Positions 1 to 19,115 are shown, counted from the first letter of the stretch. The stretch is 64,000 nt of DNA from an uncultured archaeon (GCA_000965745.1 CP009479.1:1728001-1792000), one strand, 5' to 3'. Translations and numbers: made by a program. Notes: generated from the sequence alone by a model not told the origin.

Positions 1-83
1 ACCTTTGCCTCCTCGATAACGAGATGAATGTAGTTGCAACCTACGTAAGGGGAGAGCAGGTTTTTGATTCGGAGAAACCCTGA
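1..83 (+). CDS. 3' end of an amidohydrolase, probably N-acetylglucosamine-6-phosphate deacetylase (partial, runs in from window edge)
   Basis: Not in the ORF track. The frame from nt 3 reads LCLLDNEMNVVATYVRGEQVFDSEKP*, resembling the amidohydrolase C-terminal strand pattern (AD-L-x-x-L-D..V..T...G..V). The NagA identity is inferred from context with murQ and the SIS deaminase. Confidence 0.6.
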   Translation, partial: LCLLDNEMNVVATYVRGEQVFDSEKP

Positions 84-95
84 AAATAAATTCTC

Positions 96-1118
96 CTACA
101 TGAGGAGATACGATGATTTTTCAGATTCAGGCAACCCCGTTACTCTTTGATCAAGCTCCCTTGCCAGAAGATCAATCTCCCGCATTCCAAGATTCTTCCC
201 GTTCTGGCTTAAAACGGTCTGTACAGACCCCAAAACAGCATGGTACCCGAACAGGGGGCTTTCCATTTCCACATTCTCGATCTTGTCGGTGATCTCATTA
301 ACAAAAGTTTCCCAGTAAATTTTCCCTGCCCTGAAGACCCCACCATATCCGCTAACCGGTAGTGGACCTTCCGCACCTAGTAAATTCTGAAGTGAGATGA
401 CTGACCTGGCCGCCTCCGATGCAGCCTCTTCAAGTATGTGAGCTGAAAGTTCATCCCCACTGCTGGCAAGGGACGACACCACTCTTGCGAGGGAGGCAAT
501 CCTTCTGACATTGATCCTTTCACTGTAGACTTCATTGACGAGCCCTCTCGGTTCAGCCACAGAGAATTCATTCATAACCGCTTCCAGTAATTCCTTTGAG
601 TGTAATGTTCTCCCATCGGCAATCTTAGCGGATTCCTGGATCGCTCTCCTCCCAATGTAGAACGCCCCCCCTTCATCACCGATAAACCACCCCCATCCGC
701 TGCACCTCTCAAAACGGTCCCCCTTCCTGCCGTAAGCTATCATCCCGGTCCCCGGTGCAGCAATTATTCCATCCCGGTCCGGGAATCGGCACCTGAATCC
801 GGCTTCGCCGTCATTAAGCAGCGAATATCTGCCCTGAAGCTTGTAGGAGGATATGAAATCATCAATTATCTCGGTGGATTTTGCGGAATCCTTGACGCCA
901 GCCATGGCGAAGGTAAAGTAATCAACCTCCGCCCAGCTGACGCCGCTCCTCCGAAGGGCATCATCGATCGCTGACTTGACATTTAACCTGGCCGCCTCTA
1001 TTCCAACATTCCTGAAATTTGAGGGCCCATTGACGCCAATCTGCAGAATCCTGCCGGAATCATCATAGGCAACAGCAATTGTTTTGGTAGCACCTCCGTC
1101 CAGGGAGACAAAAATCAT
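96..1118 (-). CDS. BadF/BadG/BcrA/BcrD-family N-acetylglucosamine (possibly N-acetylmuramic acid) kinase
   Basis: DGGATKT phosphate-1 motif, GPSN, LLNDG, PGTGM, GWGWFIGDEGGAFYIGR, GGVF. Confidence 0.85.
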   Translation of the reverse strand: MIFVSLDGGATKTIAVAYDDSGRILQIGVNGPSNFRNVGIEAARLNVKSAIDDALRRSGVSWAEVDYFTFAMAGVKDSAKSTEIIDDFISSYKLQGRYSLLNDGEAGFRCRFPDRDGIIAAPGTGMIAYGRKGDRFERCSGWGWFIGDEGGAFYIGRRAIQESAKIADGRTLHSKELLEAVMNEFSVAEPRGLVNEVYSERINVRRIASLARVVSSLASSGDELSAHILEEAASEAARSVISLQNLLGAEGPLPVSGYGGVFRAGKIYWETFVNEITDKIENVEMESPLFGYHAVLGSVQTVLSQNGKNLGMREIDLLARELDQRVTGLPESEKSSYLLM

Positions 1119-1178
1119 TCATCAGTGAGGTGTAGTGCAATTATACATTTTTGGTTGACAAAAAGCTGCCAGGCGGCG

Positions 1179-2267
1179 CTATTCGATATTTCTGAATACT
1201 GCGTTGTGGAACAGCCTCCTGAACCTAAGGATGCCGATGTTGTCCCTTGTTGGGTAAACGCGGTTGCTCAGTACAGTTACGGCAATTTTCCTTTTTATAT
1301 CTATCACCAGGGATGTGCCGGTAAATCCCGTGTGTCCGATAGTGCCAAAGTCCGCATAGTCGCCCATGAATGACGAGAACCCGAAAGAATCACTCGGATT
1401 CCTTGGTCTGGGCAGCTTTATCATCCATCCAAGCCCAAAAGTTCCTCCAAGGTACTCATTGGCCGGCGAGGACATAAGGTTCAGTGTACTGGAAGAGAAA
1501 AGCCTGCATTCAAGAAGGGCATTGGTAAACCTGGACATGTCTTCAAGATTGCTGAAGAGGCCTGCGTGGCCTGCAACTCCGCCAAGATAGAACGCATTTT
1601 CATCGTGCACTTTGCCCCATACGAGGCCACGTTCTTCTGTCATCTCTGTAGGGGCAACCGTATCTTTGGAAAAATCCGGGTTGAAGGACGAACTCTTCAT
1701 TCCAAGAGGATCGAATATCTCTTCACGGGCAAGCACATCGAGACGCTTTCCGGATATGTGCTCAAGGAGGAATGCGAGGGTCATGAAGTTCAAGTCACTG
1801 TACTCCTCTTTTGTATACATGCTGGCAGATGCTGCGAAACCCTTTATTCCAGTGAGATAACCTTCCCTGTTTTGCCCAAAAGAGTACAGCGGGTAATGCC
1901 ATATCAGTCCCGAAGAGTGTGAAAGAAGGGATTTGACAGTCAGCTGTCCAGCTCTGCCAGAATCTGCAAACAGCCCTAGTGATGCAAGGGAGTCATCGAG
2001 CGCAATCTTCCCCCGGTCTAACATTTTCATGACAAGCGTGGTCGTGACTACAGGTTTTGTCAGTGAAGCCATATCAAAAATCGTCTCTTTGTTGAAATGA
2101 AATTCAGGACTGCCAATGTTTCCTTCTGCAAATGCAAATTCGCTTCTTCCCTCAATAGTCACGGAAGCTGCCATTCCCGGTGAAACTGCCGGGATATGTT
2201 CCTTTATCAGGGACCGCAATTCGAGAGTTGCCTCCTTTCTCAATCTTATTCCTGCCAGATCACTCAT
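1179..2267 (-). CDS. Serine hydrolase, beta-lactamase class C-like fold (AmiE/YbbE-YfeW-like; candidate MurNAc-L-Ala amidase)
   Basis: FDMASLTK (SxxK), LLSHSSGL, YSD, GKVHDENA..LGGVAGHAGLFS, GHTGFTGTS, LSNR; no signal peptide. Confidence 0.8.
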   Translation of the reverse strand: MSDLAGIRLRKEATLELRSLIKEHIPAVSPGMAASVTIEGRSEFAFAEGNIGSPEFHFNKETIFDMASLTKPVVTTTLVMKMLDRGKIALDDSLASLGLFADSGRAGQLTVKSLLSHSSGLIWHYPLYSFGQNREGYLTGIKGFAASASMYTKEEYSDLNFMTLAFLLEHISGKRLDVLAREEIFDPLGMKSSSFNPDFSKDTVAPTEMTEERGLVWGKVHDENAFYLGGVAGHAGLFSNLEDMSRFTNALLECRLFSSSTLNLMSSPANEYLGGTFGLGWMIKLPRPRNPSDSFGFSSFMGDYADFGTIGHTGFTGTSLVIDIKRKIAVTVLSNRVYPTRDNIGILRFRRLFHNAVFRNIE

Positions 2268-2296
2268 CCTCCTATCTCAATTCGAAACAGACTGCC

Positions 2297-3280
2297 TCAC
2301 TTCACAACTTTAGTCAACTTTTCGGGCTTGTCAGGGTTCAGGCCCATGCTGTTTGCTTTGTAGTACGCGAGTAGTTGTATCGGAATAGAATACCTTATTG
2401 GGGCAAACATACCTGGATCGTATGGAAGCTTTACCGTATCCATTTCTGCTGATCCCATCGTAATGATGCTGCTCGTGTATTTTTTCATCTCTGAAATGAC
2501 CGGTGAATAGCCATCATAGGCATCTCTCAGTATCATCACCGAGGTATCTGCATCAAGTGTCTGTATCGGGCCGTGCAGATATTCACGTATCTGGTACGCT
2601 TCCGTCAGAAGGTTGCCGGTTTCCCTGAATTTAAGTGCTCCTTCGAGTGCAGTGCCAAACATGTACCCATTTCCAAGAAACACTATTCGGCTTTTCAGGG
2701 CCCTGGAAAGGTGCTCATATTCTCCGGTGTGTGAAGTGGCATTATCTGCCCAGGATGCTATTTCTGTAACATAACTCATCGGGTCCATGCCGTGAAGATG
2801 GCCCTGGATCAAGGCTACAGCTGTCAGCTGGGCAACATAACTCTTCGTTGCAGCTATTGCAGTTTCACTGCCTGCAGATGTTAACACGGATATGTCTGCT
2901 TTATGGGCCAGTGAGCTATTTTCCTCATTCGTTATTCCGATCACCCTTGCACCGCAGACAGCAGAAAGGTTGAGTGCATTCAGTGCATCAGCACTTTCTC
3001 CAGATTGGCTCATAACAACTACTGCCACTTTCTTCTCCGGTTTTCCTGGAATGTAATTTTCAAAATCAGGCGCCTTGACCAGTACTGCCGGCACATCCTC
3101 CTTCAGCAGGGATATTTGCAGAGAAAGGCCTGCATGATAGCTCGTGCCGCTGCCTGTTATGATCACATAATCGGAGCCAAGAAGGGCGTCTGCTGCTTCA
3201 CCTGCTGATTTCCGCACGGATTCAACAGTTCTCAGTATGGATTTTCCATCCTGTTTTATTTCATCAAGCATAACAGACAT
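2297..3280 (-). CDS. Double-SIS sugar isomerase, likely glucosamine-6-phosphate deaminase (GlmS isomerase-domain type)
   Basis: GSGTSYHAG, SQSGES, AGSETAIAATKSY, EGALKFRE, EYLHGP, NPDKPEKLTKVV; lacks the N-terminal glutaminase domain of GlmS. Confidence 0.85.
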   Translation of the reverse strand: MSVMLDEIKQDGKSILRTVESVRKSAGEAADALLGSDYVIITGSGTSYHAGLSLQISLLKEDVPAVLVKAPDFENYIPGKPEKKVAVVVMSQSGESADALNALNLSAVCGARVIGITNEENSSLAHKADISVLTSAGSETAIAATKSYVAQLTAVALIQGHLHGMDPMSYVTEIASWADNATSHTGEYEHLSRALKSRIVFLGNGYMFGTALEGALKFRETGNLLTEAYQIREYLHGPIQTLDADTSVMILRDAYDGYSPVISEMKKYTSSIITMGSAEMDTVKLPYDPGMFAPIRYSIPIQLLAYYKANSMGLNPDKPEKLTKVVK

Positions 3281-3342
3281 TGTTAGGCTTAACCCTCAAA
3301 CAGCTTAAAATTTCACATTCGATCGGAAGCAATATTTCCGAT

Positions 3343-4455
3343 TCAGAGGTTCTTTATTTCATTCAACAATTGAAAGTAGTTATCTCCAGGGAGAATTTTT
3401 CCGAGGACAGCAGGCTTTCCGCCACTTGCCTCAGTGTTGCCAATTCTGTTATGCAGGGTCTGGTTTGCGATAACAGCGAATCCGACACCTTCCCTTGCCT
3501 TGTCGTCTATGCCATGATCGCTGAATCTCTCAACCTTGACTGAAAACAGATCTGCGAGGTCTTTCATAAGTACCGGATTAAAGCTGCCTCCACCGCCTAC
3601 GATTATTGTCCCAATCCTGTGTGGGATAAACCTGTCCATTTGGTCCTTGATGGATTCTGCCGTGAATCTGGTCAGGGTCCTGATCACATCTTTCTGCGGC
3701 ACATCTTCTTCTGAAATCCTCTTCTGTACATAATCTTCTGTGAAATATTCCCTGCCAGTACTTTTTGGAGGACTTTTCCTGAAGTAATCATCGTCCAGGA
3801 GTTTCATGAGCAATGCTTCATTTATAGAGCCTCCCCCGGCAAACTCCCCATTCTCATCATAATCGCGGCCGGTAAATTTCTTCATGAAGGTATCGATGAG
3901 CATATTTCCCGGCCCGGTGTCAAATGCAATTAATCTATCGCCAATGTATGTGATGTTGGAAATTCCACCTATGTTCAGAGTAACAGTTCCTTCCTCCCCG
4001 AACAATAGCTTGTCGGAAAGTGGAATGAGTGGCGCTCCATCACCACCCATGCTCAGGTCGGTTGTCCTGAAATCGAAAATAACCGTTTTCCGGGTTCTGG
4101 AGAAAATCTCAGAGGGCTCTCCGATCTGAAGTGTCCCTTTATCACGTTTGCCGAGTGATGGACCATGAAATACGGTATACCCGGAAAATGCCACAACATC
4201 ATAATCCCAGTCGAGTATCCCGAGCGACTCTCCCACAAACCGGCCAAGGTACCAGTGGGCTTCGCTGAATTCCTCACTGGTCAACGGTTTCATGGTTGAA
4301 ACTTTGAGCAGCATTTCCCTGAGTGAATCGCTGAATGGAAATTCAACATGCTGCAGCACCCTGACTCTAGTGGTCTCATCCCACCCGTTGATTTCCAGAA
4401 GCGAAATGCTCAATCCATCAGTGGATGTTCCGGTTACGACAGAGGCAAACTTCAA
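3343..4455 (-). CDS. anmK: Anhydro-N-acetylmuramic acid kinase
   Basis: GTSTDG, TLQIG, DFRTTD..GGDGAPL, LNIGGISNIT, AFDTGPGNMLID, PPKSTGREYF, GGGSFN; TTG start. Confidence 0.93.
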   Translation of the reverse strand: MKFASVVTGTSTDGLSISLLEINGWDETTRVRVLQHVEFPFSDSLREMLLKVSTMKPLTSEEFSEAHWYLGRFVGESLGILDWDYDVVAFSGYTVFHGPSLGKRDKGTLQIGEPSEIFSRTRKTVIFDFRTTDLSMGGDGAPLIPLSDKLLFGEEGTVTLNIGGISNITYIGDRLIAFDTGPGNMLIDTFMKKFTGRDYDENGEFAGGGSINEALLMKLLDDDYFRKSPPKSTGREYFTEDYVQKRISEEDVPQKDVIRTLTRFTAESIKDQMDRFIPHRIGTIIVGGGGSFNPVLMKDLADLFSVKVERFSDHGIDDKAREGVGFAVIANQTLHNRIGNTEASGGKPAVLGKILPGDNYFQLLNEIKNL

Positions 4456-4511
4456 TGATCACAATATACGGCAGAATGTAAAAATGCTTTGAATAATCAA
4501 TTCAGATAAAT

Positions 4512-4521
4512 TATTAATGCA
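4512..4521 (+). promoter_or_regulatory. TATA-like box upstream of murQ
   Basis: TATTAATGCA in the divergent anmK/murQ gap; the identical 10-mer occurs at 7343-7352 upstream of dppA. Confidence 0.35.
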
Positions 4522-4544
4522 TAGTTAACCTCATAGGTAAGGAA

Positions 4545-5366
4545 ATGGAAGGCACAGAAGACAACAATACATTTTCGAGGAACATAGACCAATGGAATAC
4601 GCCTGAAATTCTCAAGTTCATCCATCTATCAGACATCGATGCCTATGAAGCGGTTTCTGCAGCAATGGAACAGATAACGGAAGCAACGGAGAAGATAGTT
4701 GAAAGGCTTGATGATGGCGGAAGAGTCATCTATGCGGGAGCCGGGACAAGCGGAAGGCTGGCTGCTCAGGACGTCGCTGAACTCTGGCCAACATACGGTA
4801 TAGGTTCGACACTCTTTGACTACATAATAGCCGGGGGCAGGGAGGCAATCAGCCACTCAGTCGAAGGTGCAGAAGACAGCCTGCAGGAATCGGTTGACCT
4901 TTTGAAGCAGAAAGGTTTGGGGAAAAATGATGTTGTCTTCGGAATAACAGCTTCCGGAACTACCCCGTTTGTCTTATCTGCACTTGAATATGCCAGGTCG
5001 GTGGGCGCCCTGTCAGTCGGAATGACGAATAACAGGTGCAGGCCTGTTGAGGAGATCGCAAAGATTGCAATAGTTCTGAACACCGGACCTGAGGTTATAC
5101 AGGGGTCTACAAGGATGAAAGCTGGAACATCACAGAAAATGGTCCTGAGCATGATTTCCACAGCAGTTGCCATCAAGCTTGGCTACACCCACAGGAACAC
5201 CATGTCCAACATGGGCGCATGGTACAACCAGAAGCTCCAGAGGAGGGCAGTGAAGATGGTTGTCCAGGAGTTTGGCGTGAGTGAAGCAGATGCAAGGAAG
5301 CTGCTTGAAGACCACTCCTACAGGATCGCGGAGGTATTTTCGCTCCTAAGCAGAAAAAAGGGCTGA
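4545..5366 (+). CDS. murQ: N-acetylmuramic acid 6-phosphate etherase
   Basis: GAGTSGRL, D..E..PTY, IAGG, VEGAED, GITASGTTPFV, TGPEVIQGSTRMKAGTSQKMVL. Confidence 0.95.
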   Translation: MEGTEDNNTFSRNIDQWNTPEILKFIHLSDIDAYEAVSAAMEQITEATEKIVERLDDGGRVIYAGAGTSGRLAAQDVAELWPTYGIGSTLFDYIIAGGREAISHSVEGAEDSLQESVDLLKQKGLGKNDVVFGITASGTTPFVLSALEYARSVGALSVGMTNNRCRPVEEIAKIAIVLNTGPEVIQGSTRMKAGTSQKMVLSMISTAVAIKLGYTHRNTMSNMGAWYNQKLQRRAVKMVVQEFGVSEADARKLLEDHSYRIAEVFSLLSRKKG

Positions 5367-5426
5367 AAGGAAGTTATGCGTGATACACACATCGAAAATA
5401 CCGGTGCCCAAACGAATGCAGAATGA

Positions 5427-6533
5427 ATGGCGGCAAAAAACATGATTCTATCGTATTGCTTCAGAGACTCGAACGGAGATATAATTGAGTCCTGCAACCA
5501 GACGTATCCTCTTCTTCCCGCCTCAAACATTAAGGTCGTCTCCGGCTATACGGCTTACAGGATGCTCGGAAGAGACTTTGAGTTCAGGACCGATTTCTCC
5601 CTCCATGATAAAGATATGCTGATACACGGTGATCCAACGCCATTGCTGAGCAGGCAGAAGCTCAGGGAAATACTAGTGGCGTCCGGGTTAGACAGGAAAG
5701 ACCTTGAAAGGGTGCTTTTCAAAGATGATATATTTGACGACAGGGAATTTGCGGATGGCTGGAGTATAGAAGACATAGGCTTCTGCTACCAGGCCCGGGT
5801 TGTCCCTTTCTCAGTCGACGAGGGGTGCTACTGTAAAGAACAGGGTGGGTGTGATGGAAGTGCGCCCCTCCATGATGTCGCCAAACAATCGGTAAATGAC
5901 CAGCTGGCAAATTTTGCCAGGGAGATATCCAGTATTGTTTCAGCGAACAACGAAATAGAATACGGCCGGTTCACCCATAATTCCAGCAATCCTCATTTCG
6001 TTTACAGGGAGAGCCTGCTGGATATTCTAGACCACATTGAAGTTTACAGCTGCAATTTTTCAATAGAGGTGCTTACAAAATATCTGTCCTACAGAAAGAC
6101 TGGCAGGGGTTCATGGGAGGACTCTGCAGAAATAATATCGGATTACATGAAATCGCTGGGGCTGGATGCATCAGGCATAAGAATCGTCGACGGGTCCGGC
6201 CTTTCAAGGTCAAACCTGATGAGTACGGAATTTCTTTCAGATCTGGCACACAAAATCATCGAGAATGGTGACAACGAATTCATGAAACTTCTGCCCTCTC
6301 CGGGAAGGGGAACATTGAGGGGCAGGCTGGACAAGCTTTCAAATTTAGGCCTGCACGCCAAAACAGGCTCTCTCGAATATTGTGGAAGCCTGACAGGCTA
6401 CCTGGAGAAGCCTGGAGTCTTTTTCAGCATAATCATAAACAACTCTCTGGAGAATGGGAAAAAGATCATAAACAAGATAGACAACCTCCTGGTGGATTTC
6501 CTTGGCAGAAACGGGATTCAATTGGAAGGTTAG
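5427..6533 (+). CDS. dacB: Peptidase S13 D-Ala-D-Ala carboxypeptidase/DD-endopeptidase (PBP4-like), no signal peptide
   Basis: PASNIK (SxxK), GDP, SCN (SxN), DGSGLSRSN, GTLRGR, AKTGSL (KTG). Confidence 0.88.
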   Translation: MAAKNMILSYCFRDSNGDIIESCNQTYPLLPASNIKVVSGYTAYRMLGRDFEFRTDFSLHDKDMLIHGDPTPLLSRQKLREILVASGLDRKDLERVLFKDDIFDDREFADGWSIEDIGFCYQARVVPFSVDEGCYCKEQGGCDGSAPLHDVAKQSVNDQLANFAREISSIVSANNEIEYGRFTHNSSNPHFVYRESLLDILDHIEVYSCNFSIEVLTKYLSYRKTGRGSWEDSAEIISDYMKSLGLDASGIRIVDGSGLSRSNLMSTEFLSDLAHKIIENGDNEFMKLLPSPGRGTLRGRLDKLSNLGLHAKTGSLEYCGSLTGYLEKPGVFFSIIINNSLENGKKIINKIDNLLVDFLGRNGIQLEG

Positions 6534-7261
6534 GTTATTTCCACGAGCTCTCTCTGCTCAACCTTCTCTATTTTAACGTCATGCGGAAATCTGGAAGCCT
6601 TCAGCAGGCTCGATGAGACCACTCCCACCCAGCCTTCTTTCTCGACCCGGTACATCGTAACATATTCATTGTCAAACCTGCTGTCCCCGTAGTAAAAGAG
6701 CCTCCCCTTCCTGGTGACCTTGTCAACAGCAAGGACAAATATGTTGTTCGTTGTTTTTACAAAATCAAACCTTCCTGAATCCTCTAGGGTTTTTCGTATC
6801 TTTTCTTCAATATCTCCCTCCTGCCTCATCAGGTACTCAAGAAAGAACTCACTGTCCGGCTGATTGTCAAGATTACCTTCATTGAGGGCGCCGGCTATGT
6901 TCTCTTTCCTGTATGAGCCATTATGAACGAGATAGACGTCGTACTCAGTGTTGCTTCGGTGATGGGGGTGCGAGTCAAGCATTCCGACCGGTTCACCTGC
7001 GGCTGCCTTTCGTGCATGGACAACAAGTATCCCACTTTCGGGGAACTCAGGTTTTCTGCTGTTGAAAATAGGCTCCCGGTACCTTCTGAAATCTATTGAG
7101 TTTTGGTCCATAGCCACATATCCCCAGCCATCGTCGTGGGACGGGTCACCTTTTCTGTCTTCAGGGAACAGTGGATCATGCCTGCATACTTCTACAAGCG
7201 ATTCAAAAACATCATTCGCATCAGATTTGAAATCCCCAAACATCGTAAACATTCTACACAA
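6530..7261 (-). CDS. Class II glutamine amidotransferase-like Ntn hydrolase (YafJ/EgtC/Dug3-like)
   Basis: The true start is most likely TTG at 7261, giving M-C-R-M-F with the N-terminal Cys nucleophile; HDDGWG, HARKA, HPH, HNGS, DSE. The ORF-track extension to 7357 is probably non-coding. Confidence 0.85.
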   Translation of the reverse strand: MCRMFTMFGDFKSDANDVFESLVEVCRHDPLFPEDRKGDPSHDDGWGYVAMDQNSIDFRRYREPIFNSRKPEFPESGILVVHARKAAAGEPVGMLDSHPHHRSNTEYDVYLVHNGSYRKENIAGALNEGNLDNQPDSEFFLEYLMRQEGDIEEKIRKTLEDSGRFDFVKTTNNIFVLAVDKVTRKGRLFYYGDSRFDNEYVTMYRVEKEGWVGVVSSSLLKASRFPHDVKIEKVEQRELVEIT

Positions 7262-7369
7262 TTCAGAGCGCCCGGTCTTGAGAAGCATTCCATTGGATAA
7301 ATATGATCCTGCCCGTGGTTGTTGTCTCATTCTGGAAATGAATATTAATGCAAACACACATGATCAACA

Positions 7370-8191
7370 ATGAGGATACTGATCTCGGTTGATGCAGAGG
7401 GGCTTCAGGGCATAACGTTCGGTACGCAGGTTCTTCCCGGGATGCCCGATTATTATCTGGCAAGAGAGACAATGGCACAGTCGGTAAACAGCGTGGGACG
7501 GGGAATTAGGTCAAGCGGTGTCGCCGAGAAGGTTACTGTTGTAGATTCACACGATGGAAGCAGGAATATACTTGCAGAATCACTCGACCCGGGAATTTCA
7601 TTGATAACTGGGGGACCTAAGCCCTTGAGCATGGTCGAGGGAGCCAGGAAAACTGATAAAATGTTCTTACTGGGTTATCACCCCAGGGCAGGAACTGAAG
7701 CCGGTGTACTTGACCACACCTATTCCACCAATGTTCACAGGCTCAGGATAAACGGGGAAGAAATGGGGGAGATTGGCCTGAGTGCCTCAGTTGCCGGCCA
7801 TTTTGGAGTCCCCGTTACTTTGTTGGCAGGAGACAGGGCTGCGGTTGGGGAAGGTGAGAAGATTATCAATGACGCTGAATTTGTAGTCCTGAAAGATGGC
7901 ATATCCAGGTACTCTGCAGAAACTTCAGTTCCAGTTGATGCCGAATCGATGCTGGAGAAATCTGCGCTTAAAGGTGCCAGGAGAAAGGGAACTCCTTTCG
8001 TCATTGATGGCAGCGTGGAAGTTTCATTAGAATTCCAGAACACGGGGATGGCGGACAACTGCATGATGCTTCCCGGTACGGTCAGAAAGGACGGCTATAC
8101 AGTACAGGCTGAAGCAAAGGATATCGTTGAGGCATACAGGATTTTCAGGGTGCTTGTATCGCTGTCATCATTTGATCATGGTGGTTATTGA
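7370..8191 (+). CDS. dppA: M55 family D-aminopeptidase (D-Ala-D-Ala hydrolysing)
   Basis: ISVDAEG (DxE), DSH, SMV, GYH..AG...GVLDHT, MGE, AGHFGVPV..GD. Confidence 0.92.
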   Translation: MRILISVDAEGLQGITFGTQVLPGMPDYYLARETMAQSVNSVGRGIRSSGVAEKVTVVDSHDGSRNILAESLDPGISLITGGPKPLSMVEGARKTDKMFLLGYHPRAGTEAGVLDHTYSTNVHRLRINGEEMGEIGLSASVAGHFGVPVTLLAGDRAAVGEGEKIINDAEFVVLKDGISRYSAETSVPVDAESMLEKSALKGARRKGTPFVIDGSVEVSLEFQNTGMADNCMMLPGTVRKDGYTVQAEAKDIVEAYRIFRVLVSLSSFDHGGY

Positions 8192-8203
8192 AGGGAGCCG
8201 ACA

Positions 8204-8920
8204 TCAATATGGCAGGCTGATCCTTGTGGATCTGTCGATTCTGCCTATTTTTTCAAATATTTTCAAAAGAAGCTGTGAATATTCACTACCATCAGACAGA
8301 TCACTGTAGGTAACTCCGCCGTTGTGGAGGTTCGCATGGATTATCGTGTTGTTCCCAAGATAGAGGCCAACGTGTCCTTCAAAGAAGACAAGGTCGCCTG
8401 ATTCAGCGTCTTCAAACGAGTCGACTGTTAATGAATTATCCCTCTGCCAACCCGCATTTCTCGGAATTTCAATCCCATTGAACCTGAAAAGCCTCTGCGT
8501 GAAGCCTGAGCAGTCATAGCCCAGATCGGACGTGCCTCCCCAGAGGTATGGGACTGTCAGGAACTCATGGGCAGACTCTGAAGGTTCAAGCCTTTCTTCA
8601 AGTTTCATCAGCAGGTTTTCGGGGATATCATGTTCGGAAATATCATCATCGTTGACACAGGACCCGAATGAAAAGATCATTCTCGTTGAGCGATAATTTC
8701 TCCTAATCCTGTAATTTTTCTTTCTGCCTTCCGATACCAGGGTTCTGAGGACGTATCCTTTCAGCTTGTCCGCCCCTTCCACGTAAAGGTAATCATCGGA
8801 TTCTGAAATCACCTTGACTTCTTCGCCGAATATTAGCTGAGAGTCCCTTTCACTGTGAAAGTCTGCCCCGACCCTGACATCTGCAACGCTGAAGGAAATG
8901 TATGACATGCCTGCGGTCAT
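8204..8920 (-). CDS. NlpC/P60 (C40) peptidase with N-terminal SH3-like region; YkfC-like gamma-D-glutamyl-diamino acid endopeptidase
   Basis: PYLWGG, DCSG (catalytic Cys), IPRN...Q, GDLVFFEGHVGLY, IHAN; N-terminal SQLIFGE.V...GYV resembles SH3b; no signal peptide. Confidence 0.85.
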   Translation of the reverse strand: MTAGMSYISFSVADVRVGADFHSERDSQLIFGEEVKVISESDDYLYVEGADKLKGYVLRTLVSEGRKKNYRIRRNYRSTRMIFSFGSCVNDDDISEHDIPENLLMKLEERLEPSESAHEFLTVPYLWGGTSDLGYDCSGFTQRLFRFNGIEIPRNAGWQRDNSLTVDSFEDAESGDLVFFEGHVGLYLGNNTIIHANLHNGGVTYSDLSDGSEYSQLLLKIFEKIGRIDRSTRISLPY

Positions 8921-8972
8921 TCTCAGGACGCCTTAAAAGCTTTTTACCCGATTCTTCACTCTCCTGATGCAA

Positions 8973-8980
8973 CTTAAATA
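8973..8980 (+). promoter_or_regulatory. TATA-like box upstream of lysA (likely leaderless transcript)
   Basis: CTTAAATA ending 21 nt before the ATG at 9002; no SD visible. Confidence 0.4.
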
Positions 8981-9001
8981 AGATGGCAAAGATACTGTGG
9001 C

Positions 9002-10279
9002 ATGTCTGGCAGACTGCATATCCCTCCACCTTTCCAGGAAAGAGAAGGCCGCCTGTATCTTGATGGCCTTGACCTTGTTGAAATAGCTTCCAGGTATGGA
9101 ACGCCCGTTTACGTCACTTCATCAGGAAGGATCAGGGAGAATTACAGGAGAATTTACAGTGCATTCAAGGAGAGGTATGATAATTTTTCCGTGAAATACG
9201 CAGTCAAAGCAAATTCAAATCCACACATAATCTCGGTCCTGGCAGAAGAAGGGGCAGGAGCTGATGTCTCCAACCTGAACGAGCTTCTTATTGCAGAAAA
9301 GTCAGGCATTCCCGCAAAGCAGATCCTCATGTCGCCCAACAACCTCAGCAGGGAGGAACTTGCTAAAGCCTCCAGCAGGGGTGTTGCGATTAACTTTGAC
9401 GACATAGGCCAAATGGAAATCATTTCAGACAGCCTTCCGAGTTTAGTTTCGTTCAGGGTAAACCCCGGCATCGGCAGGGGAGAATTTCCCGGAACAGTAA
9501 CTGCGGGCCCGGACGCCAAGTTTGGAATCCCTGAGGATCACGTTATTGAAGCGTACAGGAAAGCGAAGGATCACGGTGTCAGAAGATTCGGCATCCAGAT
9601 GATGACCGGTTCCAACGTTCTGGATTCCGGCTATTTTGGTGCGATAACATCAAAATTATTTGACATAACAAGAAGAATAAGCGATCATGCAGGCATTGAT
9701 TTTGAATTCGTGGACATAGGTGGAGGCTTTGGCGTCCCATACAGGCCTGATGAAAAGGCACTCCCGATCGATGTTGTGGCCGGGGAAGTGTCCAGAGGCC
9801 TGAAGGATAAGTTCGCTTCCGTTGGAAAACCTCTCCCTGCACTCTTTGTGGAGCCTGGCAGGTATCTTGTTGCGGATTCGACGGTGCTGCTCGGCAGAAT
9901 AACAAACGTGAAGTCATATGGAAAGACATTCATCGGGACTGATGTGGGGATGAATACGCTACTGAGGCCCGCACTTTATGGAGCATACCATCCGGTTTCG
10001 ATTGCCAACAAGCTCGATCATGAAGCCAAAATCACTGCAGATGTTGTAGGGCAGATCTGTGAAAACACTGACCGGATTGCCCTTGACAGACGCCTCCCCG
10101 ATGTTGAGGAGGGAGATATACTGGCAGTTTTCAATGCCGGGGCATACGGATTCAGCATGAGCAACCAGTTTAATGGCCACGGAAAGCCCGCTGAAGTCCT
10201 GGTCTCCGACGGTAAAGACAAGCTCATAAGGAGAAGGGAAAACATAGATGATCTACTGCAGACCGTGGTCCACGATTAA
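9002..10279 (+). CDS. lysA: Diaminopimelate decarboxylase
   Basis: GTPVYV, YAVKAN (PLP Lys), RVNP, KFG, DIGGGFG, EPGRYLV, LRPALYGAYH, GQICENTD, GAYGFSM. Confidence 0.93.
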   Translation: MSGRLHIPPPFQEREGRLYLDGLDLVEIASRYGTPVYVTSSGRIRENYRRIYSAFKERYDNFSVKYAVKANSNPHIISVLAEEGAGADVSNLNELLIAEKSGIPAKQILMSPNNLSREELAKASSRGVAINFDDIGQMEIISDSLPSLVSFRVNPGIGRGEFPGTVTAGPDAKFGIPEDHVIEAYRKAKDHGVRRFGIQMMTGSNVLDSGYFGAITSKLFDITRRISDHAGIDFEFVDIGGGFGVPYRPDEKALPIDVVAGEVSRGLKDKFASVGKPLPALFVEPGRYLVADSTVLLGRITNVKSYGKTFIGTDVGMNTLLRPALYGAYHPVSIANKLDHEAKITADVVGQICENTDRIALDRRLPDVEEGDILAVFNAGAYGFSMSNQFNGHGKPAEVLVSDGKDKLIRRRENIDDLLQTVVHD

Positions 10280-10325
10280 AAAAATTGAAAATATGATTTA
10301 AAAAAATATAAAAAATATTTTATTG
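10280..10325 (-). terminator. T-tract terminator region between convergent lysA and SBP gene
   Basis: Several A5-A7 runs on +, i.e. oligo-T on the minus strand directly after the SBP stop. Confidence 0.5.
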
Positions 10326-10326
10326 G

Positions 10327-13122
10327 TTACGTGTAGGACAGGTACTGATACAGCATTATGTTGTCCCCGGCAACCATGATATTCTCCTCGTACGTTGTGA
10401 TCGCAGTCGGATTAATCTGAGGGCTTATCTCCCTCCACTGGATTTCCTGAACGATCGGAATGGTCAGCGTCAGATTCACGAACTCGCCGTTCATTTTCTG
10501 GAACCAGTACTTGGACTGATCCGGAGTGAGTGCTGCCGATCCATTGTTGTAATCATTCACAAGGCTCTGCAGGGACATGGCCTCAGTCTTGTTCTGGTAT
10601 GAATTCGACGTGTTGCCATAGATCCAGTACGGAGTCATGTCAGACGGCCCGACGAAGGTGGACCCGTTTGTAGGCAGTGCTATTGGAGCCAGGTAGTCCG
10701 TGGGGTACGGGTAATCCGGATACCAGTCCTGGATGAATATCGGCATCGGGTTCCCGTTCGGAACGTCGTATGCATTCCTGACTATCCCAGTTACCTGCTG
10801 TATAGTCAGTTTAATGCCAGTCAGGTTGGAGACTGCACTTGCCCATACCGGCAGCATGCCTATATCTGAGGTCTTCTGCGTAAGGATAAATACCGGTATC
10901 TGGACCTGTTTGCTGTTGTACATTGCCTTTCCGCCTGAATATGTTATTCCGAGGTTATTGGACCCATTAAGGAAGTAGTTCCAGTATTGTTTGGCAAGCG
11001 TAGGACTGAAGTAAGGCACCGCCGAACCAGATGCATTCAGCTGAGCCGGTGACTGTGCATACAGCATTCCTGCTGGGAGTGCTCCCGCGAAGCTCTGTCC
11101 GAATTTTGTGTGGTAAATAGAGTTTCCCAGTTCGTAATTAAGGTAGTACTGGTCATTGAATGCATATGAAAGTGCTTTCCTCACATTCAGGTCAGAGAAC
11201 AGATTTGAGGGCATATTGGCCTGAGAATCAATGTTCTTTGTCAGCATGGTTGTGTTAACATTGGCATTGAATGCGTACCACCATATCCCAAGGGATGGAT
11301 ATCCATAAGGCTTTGCCGCTCCACTGTTGTTCAGTGCCTGGACATCATTCCAGTTTGCTGTCGGGATGCTTGTTCCCTGAGCCTGTCCTGATTTGACTGC
11401 CAGGTAAGCCTGTGAAGGCGAGTTGATGTAGTTTATCACAATCTCGTGTATCTTCGGCTTGGGGTCCCAGGACCCTGGTGACGTGAATTCCGGATTTGCA
11501 ACCAGAACAACCTGTGAGCTCGGGCTGATATATGCTATCTTATATGGCCCCGTGGCCAGTACATGGTTCTCCACATACTGGTTGTAATTCCCCGAATCTG
11601 CCTGCGACTGGTAGTTCTTGAATCCCTGCGGTGACCACTTTATCCCCGCACCATGTGCTTCAAGCCACTTTGCACTTGTAATCCATGTTCCGCTGGTTTC
11701 CAGTATCTGGAAAACAAGGGCTGCAGGCATTGAGTTCTGGAAATGGAATGTTATTGAGTTTGTATTGTTGTTCACTGTCATGTTGTTCGTGATGTTGTAG
11801 AATGTATTGCTTGAGAAATAGTCTCCCGGAAGCAGATACTGTGCCTGAATCCATCCCGGTGTCCCTGGTGATCCGCCGTCAAAGAGCAGAGTCCTGGTGA
11901 ATGAGTACATTACATCCCATGCCGTAACAGGAGATCCATCCTGGAATGAGGCGTTCTGCCTTATCTGGAATGTAAAGTTCTGTGACGGCCTGAGGTGAAC
12001 AGTGTATGTGGTTCCCCACGGGGTTGTCTCAGTGTAGTTCTTTGAGTTGTTGTTAACCATGCCGTTTGCCATTGACGGCACTGCAGTGGCGAGGGCAGGC
12101 AGGAATGAAGTTGCCGATGACTTGTTGAAAGTAAGCAGCCATTGAGCTGTGTTGTCCAGTATGCTGTATCCAAGAAGATCATAGTTGATAGCCGGGTCGA
12201 GTGTTGTATAACCTCCAGGTGCAACCTGATCGTTCACAAAGATGGAGTTGCTGGTTGGAGGCTGATAAAGTACCGCGTTTTTAAACACCGGCACATCAGT
12301 GTAGTAATTTGTGCTGTGAAGCCCCATGGATACGTTAAGCGCGCCTGTGGTTGTGTTGGCAACATCTGCAGTGTACGTTGTGACTTCTATCACATAGTAC
12401 CCTTCCTTCATTCCACTCATGTTGAGAAGTGAAGATGAGGATGGAAGCTCATATACACCGGAACTCGAATTGAACGAATAACCAAGCTGTTCAGATCTCA
12501 TGATGGATCCGTTAAGGTACAAATTGGCTGTCTGGCTGACAACCTGGAAACTCGAATTTGAAGGCTGTGTGAAATATCCTATCAGGAATGATGCATGTGA
12601 GCCCGGGGAAAAGACCGTGGTCTGATTGATCTCAGGCTGACTTGACCCGGACTGAACCAGGTTTACAAGACCTATCGATGAATACTGGTCCAGTGATGAA
12701 CTGGTGGCTATGACCTTCACCATTGAACCGCTTCCCTCATACACTGAATTTCCAAAGTTGATTGTGTAGTATATGTAATAGGTTCCAGGGTGTTCATAGA
12801 CGTGCGAAACAGATATGTTGGTAGTTCCGGAATAGTATATCTTAGTCTGTGTGTGGTCTCCAAAATAGACAGTCATGTCCTTGAATACTCCATTAGCATG
12901 CACTGTGAAATTATACGTGCTGCCCGTGGCTGTTGACGATGCAGCGCTGGCTACATTCGCGGAACTTCCCCGGGCCGTAGAATGACCGAAATTCAGTACG
13001 GCAAGTCCGGCGATTATGATGACCAGCACCACAATTACCGCAAGGAGCGCCCTGCTCCCTGAACCTCTCCCCGCTGGTGGTCCAGCCGGGCCAGGTACAA
13101 TCGGATCTTTTGTATCTGTCAT
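10327..13122 (-). CDS. Family 5 ABC substrate-binding protein (peptide/oligosaccharide) with N-terminal TM anchor and PKD domain
   Basis: Hydrophobic anchor, VYFGD..HVY..PG.Y PKD motif, TLDPA, FQDGSPVTAWDVMYSFTR, ATGPYKI, VRKALSYA, WYPDYP; many N-x-S/T sequons. Confidence 0.9.
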   Translation of the reverse strand: MTDTKDPIVPGPAGPPAGRGSGSRALLAVIVVLVIIIAGLAVLNFGHSTARGSSANVASAASSTATGSTYNFTVHANGVFKDMTVYFGDHTQTKIYYSGTTNISVSHVYEHPGTYYIYYTINFGNSVYEGSGSMVKVIATSSSLDQYSSIGLVNLVQSGSSQPEINQTTVFSPGSHASFLIGYFTQPSNSSFQVVSQTANLYLNGSIMRSEQLGYSFNSSSGVYELPSSSSLLNMSGMKEGYYVIEVTTYTADVANTTTGALNVSMGLHSTNYYTDVPVFKNAVLYQPPTSNSIFVNDQVAPGGYTTLDPAINYDLLGYSILDNTAQWLLTFNKSSATSFLPALATAVPSMANGMVNNNSKNYTETTPWGTTYTVHLRPSQNFTFQIRQNASFQDGSPVTAWDVMYSFTRTLLFDGGSPGTPGWIQAQYLLPGDYFSSNTFYNITNNMTVNNNTNSITFHFQNSMPAALVFQILETSGTWITSAKWLEAHGAGIKWSPQGFKNYQSQADSGNYNQYVENHVLATGPYKIAYISPSSQVVLVANPEFTSPGSWDPKPKIHEIVINYINSPSQAYLAVKSGQAQGTSIPTANWNDVQALNNSGAAKPYGYPSLGIWWYAFNANVNTTMLTKNIDSQANMPSNLFSDLNVRKALSYAFNDQYYLNYELGNSIYHTKFGQSFAGALPAGMLYAQSPAQLNASGSAVPYFSPTLAKQYWNYFLNGSNNLGITYSGGKAMYNSKQVQIPVFILTQKTSDIGMLPVWASAVSNLTGIKLTIQQVTGIVRNAYDVPNGNPMPIFIQDWYPDYPYPTDYLAPIALPTNGSTFVGPSDMTPYWIYGNTSNSYQNKTEAMSLQSLVNDYNNGSAALTPDQSKYWFQKMNGEFVNLTLTIPIVQEIQWREISPQINPTAITTYEENIMVAGDNIMLYQYLSYT

Positions 13123-13150
13123 TTGTTATCATGGGGGTAAAAAGTTCCAA

Positions 13151-13158
13151 TATATAAA
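13151..13158 (-). promoter_or_regulatory. TATA box of SBP gene
   Basis: TTTATATA on the minus strand ~30 nt upstream of the ATG at 13122. Confidence 0.5.
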
Positions 13159-13262
13159 ATTCTGTTTTCGTTTCTATAATCCGAATATCGTTATAAACCA
13201 GTCAGTCAGAGAGAGGTTACGAAATAATATAATGCCGCCTATCCATGTAATCCCTGATTAAC

Positions 13263-14198
13263 ATGAGCATCAAATCAATTGACGGCTGGAATTTTGACAG
13301 AATACATTTTTCCTGGAAACCCTCCATGGAACCAATTGATAGCGTTAAAGACGGTGAGGAATTCGAGGTAAGCGTGCCGGATTCATCAACAATGCAGGTT
13401 AAGGAAGACTGGACTACCAGTGATATGGATCATCTGGATACCAGCAAATTCGATGGAGCAGTAGGCCCTGTTTACGTTGAAGGCGCCGAGGCCGGAGATG
13501 TTCTGGAGGTAGAAATCGTGGATATAAAAACCGGAAGATGGGGATGGACATCCATTCAACCAGACTTTGGCTTCATCAAGAAAAGGTTCCAGAACAGGCT
13601 GATCATCTGGAAGATACAGGACGGGGTTGCTTATACAGATGATGATTTTCTCAAAGGTGTCAGGATAGAGGCAAAACCGTTCCTCGGAGTTACAGGCGTA
13701 GCACCTGGGAGCGGGGAGTACGGCATGATACCGCCTCAGTACTTCGGGGGCAACATGGATAACCATCTTCTTGTCAAGGGTGCAAAATTGTATCTTCCGG
13801 TTCACCAGAAAGGCGCCCTCCTATCCGTCTCAGATCCACATGCTTCCCAGGGCGATGGTGAGGTTTGTGGGACGGCAATAGAGACAAGCGCCAATGTAAC
13901 TCTCCGGGTGAGCGTCCTGAAGGGCAGGAATATGAAATTTCCCAGGGCTGTTTCACCCTATACAGACACTGATGAAAAAATCGTGGCTATGGGGATTGCC
14001 CCCGATCTTAAGGAGGCCGCATCAATTGCCGTCGACAGCATGATCGAGGAGTTGCAGACGAAAGGGTTTACCGATGAGGAGGCTTATGCCCTGATGAGCG
14101 TGGCTGGCGACCTCAGGATCTCCGAGGTTGTCGATGAGCCCAACTTTGTTGTATCTGCAACCATGGCTGCCAGGTACGCCAGAAGGGAGCGGGATTAA
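13263..14198 (+). CDS. Acetamidase/formamidase family protein
   Basis: GPVYVEGAEAGDVL, PFLGV.GVAP, GGNMD, HASQGDGEVCGTAIE. Confidence 0.92.
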   Translation: MSIKSIDGWNFDRIHFSWKPSMEPIDSVKDGEEFEVSVPDSSTMQVKEDWTTSDMDHLDTSKFDGAVGPVYVEGAEAGDVLEVEIVDIKTGRWGWTSIQPDFGFIKKRFQNRLIIWKIQDGVAYTDDDFLKGVRIEAKPFLGVTGVAPGSGEYGMIPPQYFGGNMDNHLLVKGAKLYLPVHQKGALLSVSDPHASQGDGEVCGTAIETSANVTLRVSVLKGRNMKFPRAVSPYTDTDEKIVAMGIAPDLKEAASIAVDSMIEELQTKGFTDEEAYALMSVAGDLRISEVVDEPNFVVSATMAARYARRERD

Positions 14199-16832: not shown

Positions 16833-16935
16833 CAGAACAGGGAAATATGTTGACTCTGTTCATAAGGGCCATACCGAACATGTTATGAAACAGTTCGATA
16901 TCTTTAAACAGGAGCATAAACCGCCACAATTCAAC

Positions 16936-18471
16936 TCATTCCGCACTGTAAATTTTTCTTCCTTTCACGTAGGTCTCAAGCACCTTCAAATTGCGAAGTT
17001 CATTGAAGTCCAGGGTCATCGGGTCCATACCCACAACGATGAAGTCGGCCATGTTTCCCTCCCTCAGGGACCCGATTTCGTCATCCAGTACAGCCTTCGC
17101 AGATCCTTCCGTGTAAAGTTCTATGGATTTGCTTACGCTGAGCCTCTCATCATCTGTAACCTGCCCGAGTAAAGTCCCTTCCGATCTCCCCCTGGTTGCT
17201 GCTGCATAAACCGTTTCCCATGGATTCAGCGGCTCAACCGGGGAATCGGTCGACAGTGCCATGTCAAGACCTCTTGAAAGGAGTGTCCTGAAAGGATATG
17301 CCATCTTTGCCCTGGATCTGCCAATCCTGTCCAGGGTCCAGAAGTCTGTAATGATGAAATGTGGCTGCACCACGAGCATCGGCGATATCAACTCAAGCTC
17401 ATCCATCTGGTCCTGCCTGATGAGTGATGCATGCTCGATCCTGTGTTTCCCCTTCAGCTTCCTGTACACTTCTATAACGTTGTCCAGGGCCTTGTCCCCT
17501 ATGGCGTGTGTGGCAATGTGCAGACCTTTTTCCTCGGCTTTTCTTGCAAGCTCCAGCATCTTCGCCTGGCCTGTTATCTCAATTCCACGGTTGTCAGGAT
17601 CATCCCTGTATGAGAACGAAAGCAGTGCGGTCTTGGTCCCCAGGGAACCATCGGCAAAGATCTTCACGCCCACCACCCTCAGCATATCATCATTCTCGAA
17701 TCCCTTGAAGTTGTCAAGTTCATCCGCATTCAGGTAGGCCCTGACCCTCACGTTGAGGCTCCCCTCTCTCCTCATGCGTTCAAGGAACTTCAGGGACCCA
17801 AGTGAGCAGCTCACGAAGCCCACAGTGGTAACTCCCAGCCTCGCAGCCTCATTGAGTGCGTCTATCAGCATAGTACAGCTCTGGTCCTCCTCGCATTTCT
17901 CCTTTATGGCGCGGTCAACGTATTCGAATGCTTTCTCCCTCACCACTCCAGTCAACTCGCCTTCACTCATCTCAAGGTCGCCGGACCTGTGAAACCTGTC
18001 TTTCAGCTCGAGCATATCAATCGCCTTGGTATTCAGCACAGCAGAATGGAGGTCCACCCTGCTCAGGTACACAGGCCTCTCCTTCTCTATCTCTTCAATA
18101 TCCATCCTGGTTGGCATCCTGTGCTCCTTGAACCTGTGCTCGTCCCAGCCATGCCCGATCACCCACCCCATCATGCCATGGGATCCCCTGATCTTTGCCT
18201 GCAGCTCAGTGATGGATGATACGCCTACGAGATCTATCTCGTTAAGGTACTCGCCAAAATTGTCCAGGTGCATGTGTGCGTCGATGAACCCCGGGAGGAT
18301 CACCCTTCCCTTCAAATCAACAACTTCAGCGTCCTTTCCGGCCTTACTGCGCATGCTGCCCTCTTTTCCAAGAGCGGTTATTCTGCCGTCCCGGACAACC
18401 ATCGCCTCGACATGCCCGATCGGATCAAACGATGTAAAAATCTTCGCGTTTGTAAAAATGGTGTCTGCCAT
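16936..18471 (-). CDS. Amidohydrolase 3 family (YtcJ-like) metal-dependent hydrolase
   Basis: PGFIDAHMH, KIFADGSLG, HAIGD, RIEHAS, STDSPV; start placed at MADTIF after a GAGGGG SD-like sequence. Confidence 0.88.
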   Translation of the reverse strand: MADTIFTNAKIFTSFDPIGHVEAMVVRDGRITALGKEGSMRSKAGKDAEVVDLKGRVILPGFIDAHMHLDNFGEYLNEIDLVGVSSITELQAKIRGSHGMMGWVIGHGWDEHRFKEHRMPTRMDIEEIEKERPVYLSRVDLHSAVLNTKAIDMLELKDRFHRSGDLEMSEGELTGVVREKAFEYVDRAIKEKCEEDQSCTMLIDALNEAARLGVTTVGFVSCSLGSLKFLERMRREGSLNVRVRAYLNADELDNFKGFENDDMLRVVGVKIFADGSLGTKTALLSFSYRDDPDNRGIEITGQAKMLELARKAEEKGLHIATHAIGDKALDNVIEVYRKLKGKHRIEHASLIRQDQMDELELISPMLVVQPHFIITDFWTLDRIGRSRAKMAYPFRTLLSRGLDMALSTDSPVEPLNPWETVYAAATRGRSEGTLLGQVTDDERLSVSKSIELYTEGSAKAVLDDEIGSLREGNMADFIVVGMDPMTLDFNELRNLKVLETYVKGRKIYSAE

Positions 18472-18542
18472 TCTCCCCCTCTTATGAAAAGTACCTACTA
18501 CCATATTAAGGCTTGAGGCTTAAGATGTAGGCTCAGAACAGT

Positions 18543-19031
18543 TTACTGGCGCCAGACCCTTATTCTCCAGACATAGAGCAGGCTGATGACGTAGTTCAAC
18601 GGATAAGCCGCCAGGGCTCCGCCAATGTTTGCAATGACCGGGTTGATTCCAAAGTTGTAATAGATAAGCAACTGTACAATAATTCCAACAGCACTGCCAG
18701 CCGCGTATATCAGCTCAAACTTGATGAGCCGGATTAACAGGCCCACCCTTTCCCCGCCATGATTGCCCTCATTCCTCACAGTCCACCATTCATTGGCGAG
18801 GAAGCCGAAGGCAACACTGAAGAAGACTGCCGCAACATTGATCGGGATTATGTAGTAAACTCCGAATGCGAAAAGCCCCCATGCAAGGATTGCTTCCTCA
18901 AGGCCAAAGGATATTATGCTCACAGTGGAGAATTTTGATCCTCTTATGATGTTTGAAATCAGTACCCTGTACTTTCCTTTCTCCATGAGTATCATCTCCT
19001 CTTCGGCATGTTTGAGGACCCGACGGCGCAA
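18543..19031 (-). CDS. GtrA-like small membrane protein
   Basis: Four hydrophobic segments with KF..V, FLANEWWT, RLIKF, NYVIS..YVW pattern. Confidence 0.7.
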   Translation of the reverse strand: MRRRVLKHAEEEMILMEKGKYRVLISNIIRGSKFSTVSIISFGLEEAILAWGLFAFGVYYIIPINVAAVFFSVAFGFLANEWWTVRNEGNHGGERVGLLIRLIKFELIYAAGSAVGIIVQLLIYYNFGINPVIANIGGALAAYPLNYVISLLYVWRIRVWRQ

Positions 19032-19115
19032 CTCAAAGAACGGCCTGCCATGGGCAATATTTATTGCCGCCCAAGCTTAAAAATGTTGCAACTCAAATAT
19101 TCCATAACGTTCGAG

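Follow-up and report, generated by a model that had tools for sequence, protein, structure and literature searches.

Gene content and extent of the block

The window analyzed here is a stretch of 64,000 nucleotides from an uncultured archaeon (genome G000; GCA_000965745.1, CP009479.1), namely positions 1728001-1792000 of its contig C1 (2,226,687 bp, GC 46.417%), window position 1 being C1:1728001. Its left end holds part of a 21.9-kb block of 17 genes (C1:1716427-1738279) with the enzyme families of bacterial peptidoglycan (murein) recycling, and this block very probably encodes a pathway that salvages and catabolises fragments of foreign peptidoglycan. Families specific for N-acetylmuramic acid (MurNAc), namely MurQ, AnmK and NamZ, are co-located with families specific for the stem peptide (S13, NlpC and LysA). 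The module enzyme genes of the window are each single-copy or nearly so in G000, and the set recurs, reshuffled, in eight genera; chance clustering is therefore not credible.

An earlier note, made from the window alone, had described positions 1-13122 as a nearly complete peptidoglycan-scavenging cluster. Eleven complete ORFs and the 3' end of nagA are intact there, in agreement with the Pfam and NCBIfam family matches. The cluster is more complete than was claimed: it begins 11.6 kb before the window, with an Opp-type importer, a DUF218 protein, a surface amidase-like protein, NagZ and NamZ upstream, and the gene fragment read as a probable nagA is the end of a full nagA (Table 1).

The borders were drawn by comparison with a congener, G002 (96% complete; L072, G002:C3), from which the whole module is absent. 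In this genome, lysA is kept between an M20 gene, directly beside it, and a large family-5 binding protein (SBP5) that adjoins lysA and is 91% identical to the G000 copy; the module is thus taken to run from the upstream SBP5 to lysA. The arrangement in G002 fits the loss of the block with salvage of free diaminopimelate (DAP) retained. The large 931-aa binding protein, counted as a cluster member in the earlier note, had to be given up as the module transporter: it is one of eight paralogues in G000 and is retained in G002 without the module.

The module is laid out as several short transcription units on alternating strands. No regulator gene was seen within it, no shared operator was obvious by eye in the divergent intergenic regions and Rfam scans returned no matches.

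Table 1. Genes of the module and its right flank (C1, contig coordinates; all others, window positions).
Feature	Position	Strand	Match or remark
SBP5 (importer binding protein)	C1:1716427-1718274	+	upstream of window
oppB	C1:1718308-1719309	+	upstream of window
oppC	C1:1719316-1720209	+	upstream of window
oppD	C1:1720209-1721180	+	upstream of window
oppF	C1:1721193-1722203	+	upstream of window
DUF218	C1:1722268-1722822 (L001:12268-12822)	+	upstream of window
Membrane-anchored Amidase_6/CHAP-fold protein	C1:1722840-1724075	-	weak Amidase_6 match
nagZ	C1:1724271-1725671	+	upstream of window
namZ	C1:1725684-1726775	-	PF07075, PF20732
nagA, GlcNAc-6-P deacetylase	C1:1727010-1728083; window 1..83 = 3' end	+	TIGR00221, 264 vs. 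cut-off 226
BadF-family sugar kinase, MurK-like (proposed)	96..1118	-	PF01869
AmiE/YfeW(Pbp4B)-like serine hydrolase, beta-lactamase fold	1179..2267	-	PF00144, best NCBIfam Pbp4B
Double-SIS protein, proposed glucosamine-6-P deaminase (NagB-II/GlmD type)	2297..3280	-	Pfam/NCBIfam
anmK, anhydro-MurNAc kinase, archaeal clade	3343..4455	-	PF03702
murQ, MurNAc-6-P etherase, short archaeal form	4545..5366	+	NF003915
dacB-like S13 DD-carboxy/endopeptidase without signal peptide	5427..6533	+	PF02113
Stand-alone class-II Ntn hydrolase (GATase_4-like)	6530..7261	-	TTG start before Cys
dppA, M55 D-aminopeptidase (D-Ala-D-Ala)	7370..8191	+	PF04951, 265 bits
SH3b-NlpC/P60 (SH3_16 + NlpC/P60), predicted gamma-D-Glu-mDAP endopeptidase	8204..8920	-	domain match
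lysA, meso-DAP decarboxylase; right module border	9002..10279	+	TIGR01048, 386 vs. 298
Large 931-aa SBP5, flanking backbone, outside module	10327..13122	-	paralogue and synteny

Sugar, peptide and lysine enzymes

Substrates are predicted here from family membership and conserved residues, the latter counted in 23 homologues (AmiE-like protein, NagZ), 26 (NagA), 27 (NlpC/P60) and 85 (surface protein). On the sugar side, NagZ conserves the His/Asp dyad motif and the nucleophilic Asp (Lys166-His167, Asp177, His179, Asp249), and its top matches in the PDB are all GH3 N-acetylglucosaminidases. NamZ has both of its Pfam domains (PF07075, 219 bits; PF20732, 97 bits). MurQ scores 314 against a cut-off of 168 for NF003915, and its catalytic pair, Glu79/Glu110, corresponds to Glu83/Glu114 of E. 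coli and is conserved, as are the metal ligands of NagA (Glu101, His167, His188, Asp246). AnmK reaches 266 bits with Pfam and 386.8 with NCBIfam (cut-off 387); Asp13, Arg130, Asp179 and Glu322 are conserved and align with P. aeruginosa AnmK. The best PDB match of the BadF kinase is the MurNAc/GlcNAc kinase 8zo3 (E 3e-31), followed by the Sulfolobus-type hexokinase 2e2n (E 2e-29). It is proposed to be a MurK-like enzyme, which would convert MurNAc and N-acetylglucosamine (GlcNAc) into their 6-phosphates. The related cluster of Ca. Sysuiplasma carries a classical NagB (PF01182), and no SIS gene was found in the stretch examined.

On the peptide side, DacB conserves Ser33/Lys36, Ser208/Asn210 and Lys312-Thr-Gly, and DppA its metal ligands (Asp8, Glu10, His61, His104, Glu134). 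The AmiE-like hydrolase is 34% identical to E. coli YfeW, with Ser68, Lys71, Tyr156 and His312 conserved; no PDB match was obtained at E 1e-15. It is proposed to act as a MurNAc-L-Ala amidase. The N-terminal Cys nucleophile of the Ntn hydrolase is conserved and homologues occur in several related clusters; a role as gamma-D-glutamyl or amide hydrolase is proposed.

The NlpC/P60 protein had been called YkfC-like. The SH3b and NlpC/P60 domains and the Cys-His-His triad bear this out, Cys137, His183, His195 and Asn155 being invariant. A strict YkfC label was rejected, however. In recycling YkfCs, a Tyr in SH3b1 and an Asp in the NlpC domain select stems with a free N-terminal L-Ala (Xu et al., PMC4600125); the two residues of the B. 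ovatus enzyme, Tyr80 and Asp221, align to Leu53 (Leu or Val in 27/27) and Asn155 (27/27). The lysin DvLysin has Ala/Asn at these places (PMC4600125). The archaeal enzyme thus has a lysin-type S2 site and, because the Tyr/Asp pair is absent and the Asn is as in DvLysin, may cut stems that are still attached to MurNAc.

Nearly all clusters include a DUF218 gene, which is under purifying selection; its product may act on a wall-derived substrate. The DUF218 family includes E. coli SanA and ElyC.

LysA is the sole copy in G000, with Lys69, Cys353 and Glu354 conserved. Searches of this genome did not detect DapF, a true DapB, Ddh or LysX, and DapA-like matches remained below the cut-off. The main natural source of meso-DAP is murein. 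The decarboxylase, an orphan of any DAP pathway, must accordingly be fed with meso-DAP from outside, as the earlier note supposed when it derived lysine from wall fragments; salvage of lysine from foreign meso-DAP is well supported, and G000 appears unable to make lysine de novo. Six of the 17 genomes of genus g12 have MurQ, and lysA is present in these six and no others.

A proposed salvage pathway and its alternatives

A simple hydropathy scan for N-terminal hydrophobic and transmembrane segments, from which all locations are predicted, gave no hydrophobic leader, transmembrane or signal-like segment in any of the 12 enzymes; they are probably cytoplasmic. The same scan gives transmembrane segments in the upstream SBP5 and the amidase-like protein, which are read as membrane-anchored and have 14-20 N-glycosylation sequons.

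The amidase-like surface protein has 86 close homologues, none with a recorded Pfam domain, and the named ones are archaeal. Cys109 and His227 are invariant. Its structural model (pLDDT 83.8) consists of a papain-like domain and an Ig-like stalk, the latter dominating a Foldseek search with the whole protein. The best match of the model is the endolysin Lys2972 (Z 10.7, rmsd 2.5 Å, 124 aligned), with CwlO, Tae3, LytE and CHAP domains further down and many NlpC/CHAP rows at Z 8-9; the Atlas agrees. The model predicts a wall amidase of CHAP/NlpC fold, papain-like and with a Cys-His pair, a fold alone not being equivalent to activity.

According to the proposed pathway, neighbouring bacteria would shed or release soluble muropeptides, which the surface amidase may trim and which would enter through SBP5-OppBCDF. 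In the cytoplasm, DacB would open D-Ala-mDAP cross-links and trim D-Ala, while the lysin-type NlpC/P60 would cut the gamma-D-Glu-mDAP bond, the stem possibly still being on MurNAc. The AmiE-like enzyme would take L-Ala off the lactyl group and DppA would split D-Ala peptides. NagZ and NamZ could alternately strip GlcNAc and MurNAc from the non-reducing end, to be turned into 6-phosphates by the BadF/MurK kinase (MurNAc, GlcNAc) and AnmK (terminal anhydro-MurNAc). D-lactate would then be freed by MurQ and acetate by NagA, and the SIS deaminase would give ammonia and fructose-6-P; LysA would convert meso-DAP to lysine. The predicted yield is fructose-6-P, lactate, acetate, ammonia, alanine, glutamate and lysine.

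Several observations weigh against this scheme. The upstream SBP5, the predicted muropeptide-binding component, is without a close solved relative (best E 1e-12). SLT and GH25 endo-muramidases were not found in the five genomes searched, so that intact sacculi may be unusable and the cell probably relies on ready-made fragments from bacterial turnover or lysis. Anhydro-MurNAc ends arise from bacterial lytic transglycosylases, and the presence of AnmK fits such feeding. The archaeal AnmK clade, however, departs from bacterial AnmK at a conserved sugar-side motif (residues 90-93), and its specificity may differ from 1,6-anhydro-MurNAc. The peptide arm of the earlier note stands as to its AmiE-like, DacB, NlpC/P60, DppA and LysA families; it is incomplete in that neither an Ala-Glu epimerase orthologue (best match 27%, outside the cluster) nor an S66 LD-carboxypeptidase was found in G000, which leaves two stem-peptide bonds without an assigned enzyme. 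Both steps may be covered by DppA, the Ntn hydrolase, the adjacent M20 or an unlinked CocE (C1:472612), which is 52% identical to the cluster-type CocE. PfkA and a full-length GlmS were not found in G000 either, whereas transaldolase, transketolase and a GlcD/F-type dehydrogenase are present. Biosynthesis may thus be as important a fate of the sugars as energy, and the probable route for fructose-6-P is transaldolase/transketolase or biosynthesis, not glycolysis. Many relatives have lysA without the cluster (lysA in 57 of 103 family genomes at E 1e-40), and LysX-like genes occur in Picrophilus, G024 and G032; the lysine dependence is thus not universal. The genes, their families, catalytic residues and conservation, the selection on them in relatives and the missing synthesis pathways are observed; the substrates, cellular locations, transporter ligand and ecological role, with activity and growth on peptidoglycan, are predicted.

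A second paralogue of the Ntn hydrolase lies 28 kb upstream of the module (G000:C1:1686908-1688818), divergent from an enolase-superfamily gene that is 27% identical to the cluster epimerases and could supply a racemase step.

In place of scavenging, the archaeon might be a contact-dependent necrotroph, its surface protein attacking live bacteria and its cytoplasmic enzymes consuming the spoils. Archaeal hydrolases that kill bacteria exist (PMC12352652), and the surface protein has a fold like that of phage endolysins and type VI secretion system (T6SS) amidase effectors and a conserved Cys-His pair. Moreover, all genomes with this protein also carry the cluster NlpC (16/16, among the 103 family genomes). 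It is absent, however, from genus g12 and Picrophilus, which have the rest of the cluster, and it is tethered and not released. Gram-negative walls of the mDAP type also lie beneath an outer membrane. The lack of SLT and GH25 matches, together with enzymes without signal peptides, favours scavenging over killing, and we regard necrotrophy as improbable.

A slightly less probable reading still is that murein-type families have been repurposed for another substrate, such as D-peptides of various kinds, N-glycans or chitin oligomers. GlcNAc catabolism also makes use of NagZ, NagA, the deaminase and the BadF kinase, the motif of AnmK is altered and its fold also includes levoglucosan kinases, and the region is rich in general amidohydrolases. 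Such a reading would require the joint repurposing of MurQ, NamZ, S13, NlpC/P60, the Ala-Glu epimerase and LysA, families whose catalytic residues and linkage are kept across genera.

Distribution, host and relation to known systems

The salvage pathway was followed through 103 genomes of the family, whose kinship makes co-occurrence counts non-independent, and through 401 genomes of the phylum. Among the former, MurQ was found in 25 (eight genera), NamZ in 24, NlpC in 29 and S13 DacB in 32, all four together in 22; MurQ and NamZ overlap in 22 genomes where 5.8 would be expected. The surface amidase is present in 16. Gene order is reshuffled between genera with linkage kept, in the eight genera, cultured Picrophilus included, and in Sysuiplasma, which argues for selection on the gene set. 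An Ala-D/L-Glu epimerase-like gene and a CocE/NonD hydrolase are additional members in most relatives, and GNAT, M19 or S66 in some; AnmK and DppA are optional, and AnmK was not found in Picrophilus G022. Across five pairs of relatives, G000 itself not among them, dN/dS ranged from 0.02 to 0.37 and was mostly near 0.1, indicating purifying selection. In G032 (L023), the cluster is interrupted by an extra BadF kinase and an ABC importer; this genome also has two namZ and an S66 LD-carboxypeptidase. In Picrophilus (L017/L018:1-6702), type I CRISPR-Cas genes lie next to the cluster and are not the same in the two strains.

The MurQs of the clusters form one long-branched archaeal clade (100/100) that does not keep the genera together, a pattern suggestive of exchange between acidophilic archaea. 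AnmK likewise falls in a long-branched archaeal clade (98% SH-aLRT), with at most 42% identity to named bacteria. The phylogenies proposed in the earlier note therefore yield archaeal clades for both proteins, and no donor is claimed, as few named bacteria were sampled. Outside the family, MurQ was found in only four of the phylum genomes, and these proteins group with bacterial MurQ: they belong to other Thermoplasmatota families (L063-L067; G146, G157, G166, G266) that acquired a bacterial-type MurQ separately, with the cluster not nearby. In G266, anmK-murQ lies on a 2.8-kb contig. A Conexivisphaerales-labelled MurQ on a 4.3-kb contig may be misbinned and was not used for the range.

Two further AnmK genes were noted. 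A stand-alone copy at L062:2903-4084 (55% identical; cluster members named Caldivirga) lies between ribosomal S9 and RNA polymerase N with a BacA gene nearby, and nests beside the G000 AnmK in the tree. In G024, a divergent AnmK-family gene with a very long branch (L013:3619-4902) belongs to a sugar-ABC locus unlinked to the murQ cluster of that genome. The search of genome contigs for related loci gave a distant bacterial AnmK as its sole match.

One might suspect an error of assembly or binning, or else a bacterial insertion that is recent and non-functional, because the genome comes from an uncultured archaeon and the genes are bacterial-type and patchily distributed. This is refuted: the genome averages a GC of 0.464 (sd 0.017) and the module has 0.474, the flanks of the module are syntenic with G002, and the exact proteins occur on independent contigs. 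The cluster is also present in an isolate genome (Picrophilus, AE017261) and in the single-contig genome G032, metagenomic copies adjoin archaeal Spt4/S24e genes, and the long archaeal branches and purifying selection agree. With a single-contig chromosome (99.4% complete, 1.1% contamination), a 16S with archaeal and no bacterial signatures, and relatives' proteins named Thermoplasmata or Thermoplasmataceae, the host is a Thermoplasmataceae archaeon, as its Thermoplasmatales-like appearance in the earlier note had suggested.

That this host builds and recycles a murein-like wall of its own is, for practical purposes, dismissed: the MurJ-family Pfam match at window 55799-57316 is not taken as evidence of lipid II, the protein having its highest score as a polysaccharide flippase, and the searches detected neither a Mur pathway nor a transpeptidase. 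MurA gave only a 64-bit match against a cut-off of 393, the domain search detected no transpeptidase domain in G000, and E. coli ftsI, murC/D/F/G, mraY, ftsW and ddlB as queries remained unmatched in this genome. The sole protein with a Mur-ligase domain is FolC-like and common to all five genomes compared. Of murA-G, mraY and ftsI, whose absence the earlier note wanted verified, these searches thus gave no match above a cut-off.

In B. subtilis, muropeptide rescue is encoded by murQ-murR-murP-amiE-nagZ-namZ and the peptide locus by dppA-E/ykfABC. The archaeal block shares with these NagZ, NamZ, the AmiE-like protein, MurQ, NagA, DppA, SH3b-NlpC/P60 and a family-5 ABC importer, and most relatives of G000 also have a YkfB-like epimerase. 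It differs in that a single locus combines both and also includes DacB, AnmK and LysA; kinases replace the phosphotransferase system (PTS), MurP being unmatched in G000 and MurR matched only at E 0.001; NagZ, the AmiE-like protein and NamZ are without an N-terminal hydrophobic segment; and the host has no wall to recycle. Salvage in Tannerella forsythia (MurT-MurK-MurQ, NamZ1/2; PMC10465942) resembles it in the use of foreign murein, the kinase-plus-etherase route for MurNAc and NamZ. Unlike Tannerella, which needs MurNAc for its own wall, the archaeon has no murein synthesis route and so has to catabolise what it takes up or put it to other biosynthetic use; its block also includes an arm from stem peptide to lysine. 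Cytoplasmic processing, the AnmK-MurQ-NagA route and a YfeW-like hydrolase recall E. coli recycling (AnmK, murQ-murP-yfeW, NagZ, NagA/B, DacB, Opp/MppA); E. coli, however, recycles its own wall with scattered genes and no NamZ (control genomes), and its MurP is absent in the archaeon. Having no MurP/MurR, no export and no wall of its own, the archaeal block is outside the B. subtilis and Tannerella systems. The enzyme families are all known; new would be a recycling-type pathway used across domains for feeding.

No described archaeal cluster with both arms was found in the literature searched, which left most subscription journals uncovered, in line with the expectation of the earlier note. 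Strock et al. (2025; PMC12352652) characterised secreted haloarchaeal M23 killers and left the scavenging question open; recycling and NamZ are not mentioned, nor is a salvage locus described. Their S2 Table lists >20 Thermoplasmatales/Sysuiplasmatales SH3+NlpC/P60 proteins without signal peptide, one of which (MBX8646798.1) is seven accession numbers from the surface amidase of the Sysuiplasma cluster (MBX8646791.1). Unlike their secreted peptidoglycan hydrolases, with signal peptide and wall-binding domain, the NlpC protein has SH3 and no signal, and the amidase-like protein is membrane-anchored. The locus suggests that many of the Thermoplasmata hydrolases listed belong to a cytoplasmic feeding pathway. 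For Cuniculiplasma, a 'scavenger' lifestyle and lysine dependence have been reported, with no muramate enzymes mentioned in main text or supplements (PMC5155288); the module offers a mechanism for both.

If the salvage reading is true, archaea have a definite part in turning over the necromass of bacterial walls in acid mine drainage and hot springs. It is testable, as cultured Picrophilus (AE017261) carries the cluster, and it predicts muropeptides or meso-DAP as a cultivation supplement. A wider reading seems to us evenly balanced between holding and failing: that widespread wall-less acidophilic archaea share a dedicated, laterally exchanged wall-feeding module with its own surface amidase family and a lysin-type cytoplasmic endopeptidase. 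DUF218, the Ntn hydrolase, the CocE-like protein and GNAT would be candidate new wall-processing enzymes, possibly encoding undescribed steps of muropeptide breakdown, and some members, including G000, would need meso-DAP from bacteria for their lysine, a nutritional dependency between domains that could explain their poor cultivability.

Beyond the module, window 10327-29379 contains two of the eight ~930-aa SBP5 paralogues among formamidase, amidohydrolase, amidase, M20, M24 and hydantoinase/oxoprolinase genes, and may represent a wider amide and peptide scavenging zone. Window 30541-62070, of lower GC (0.38-0.49), encodes a glycosyltransferase, a sulfatase, DUF2079 and the polysaccharide flippase with the MurJ-family match, and is probably a surface-glycan locus.

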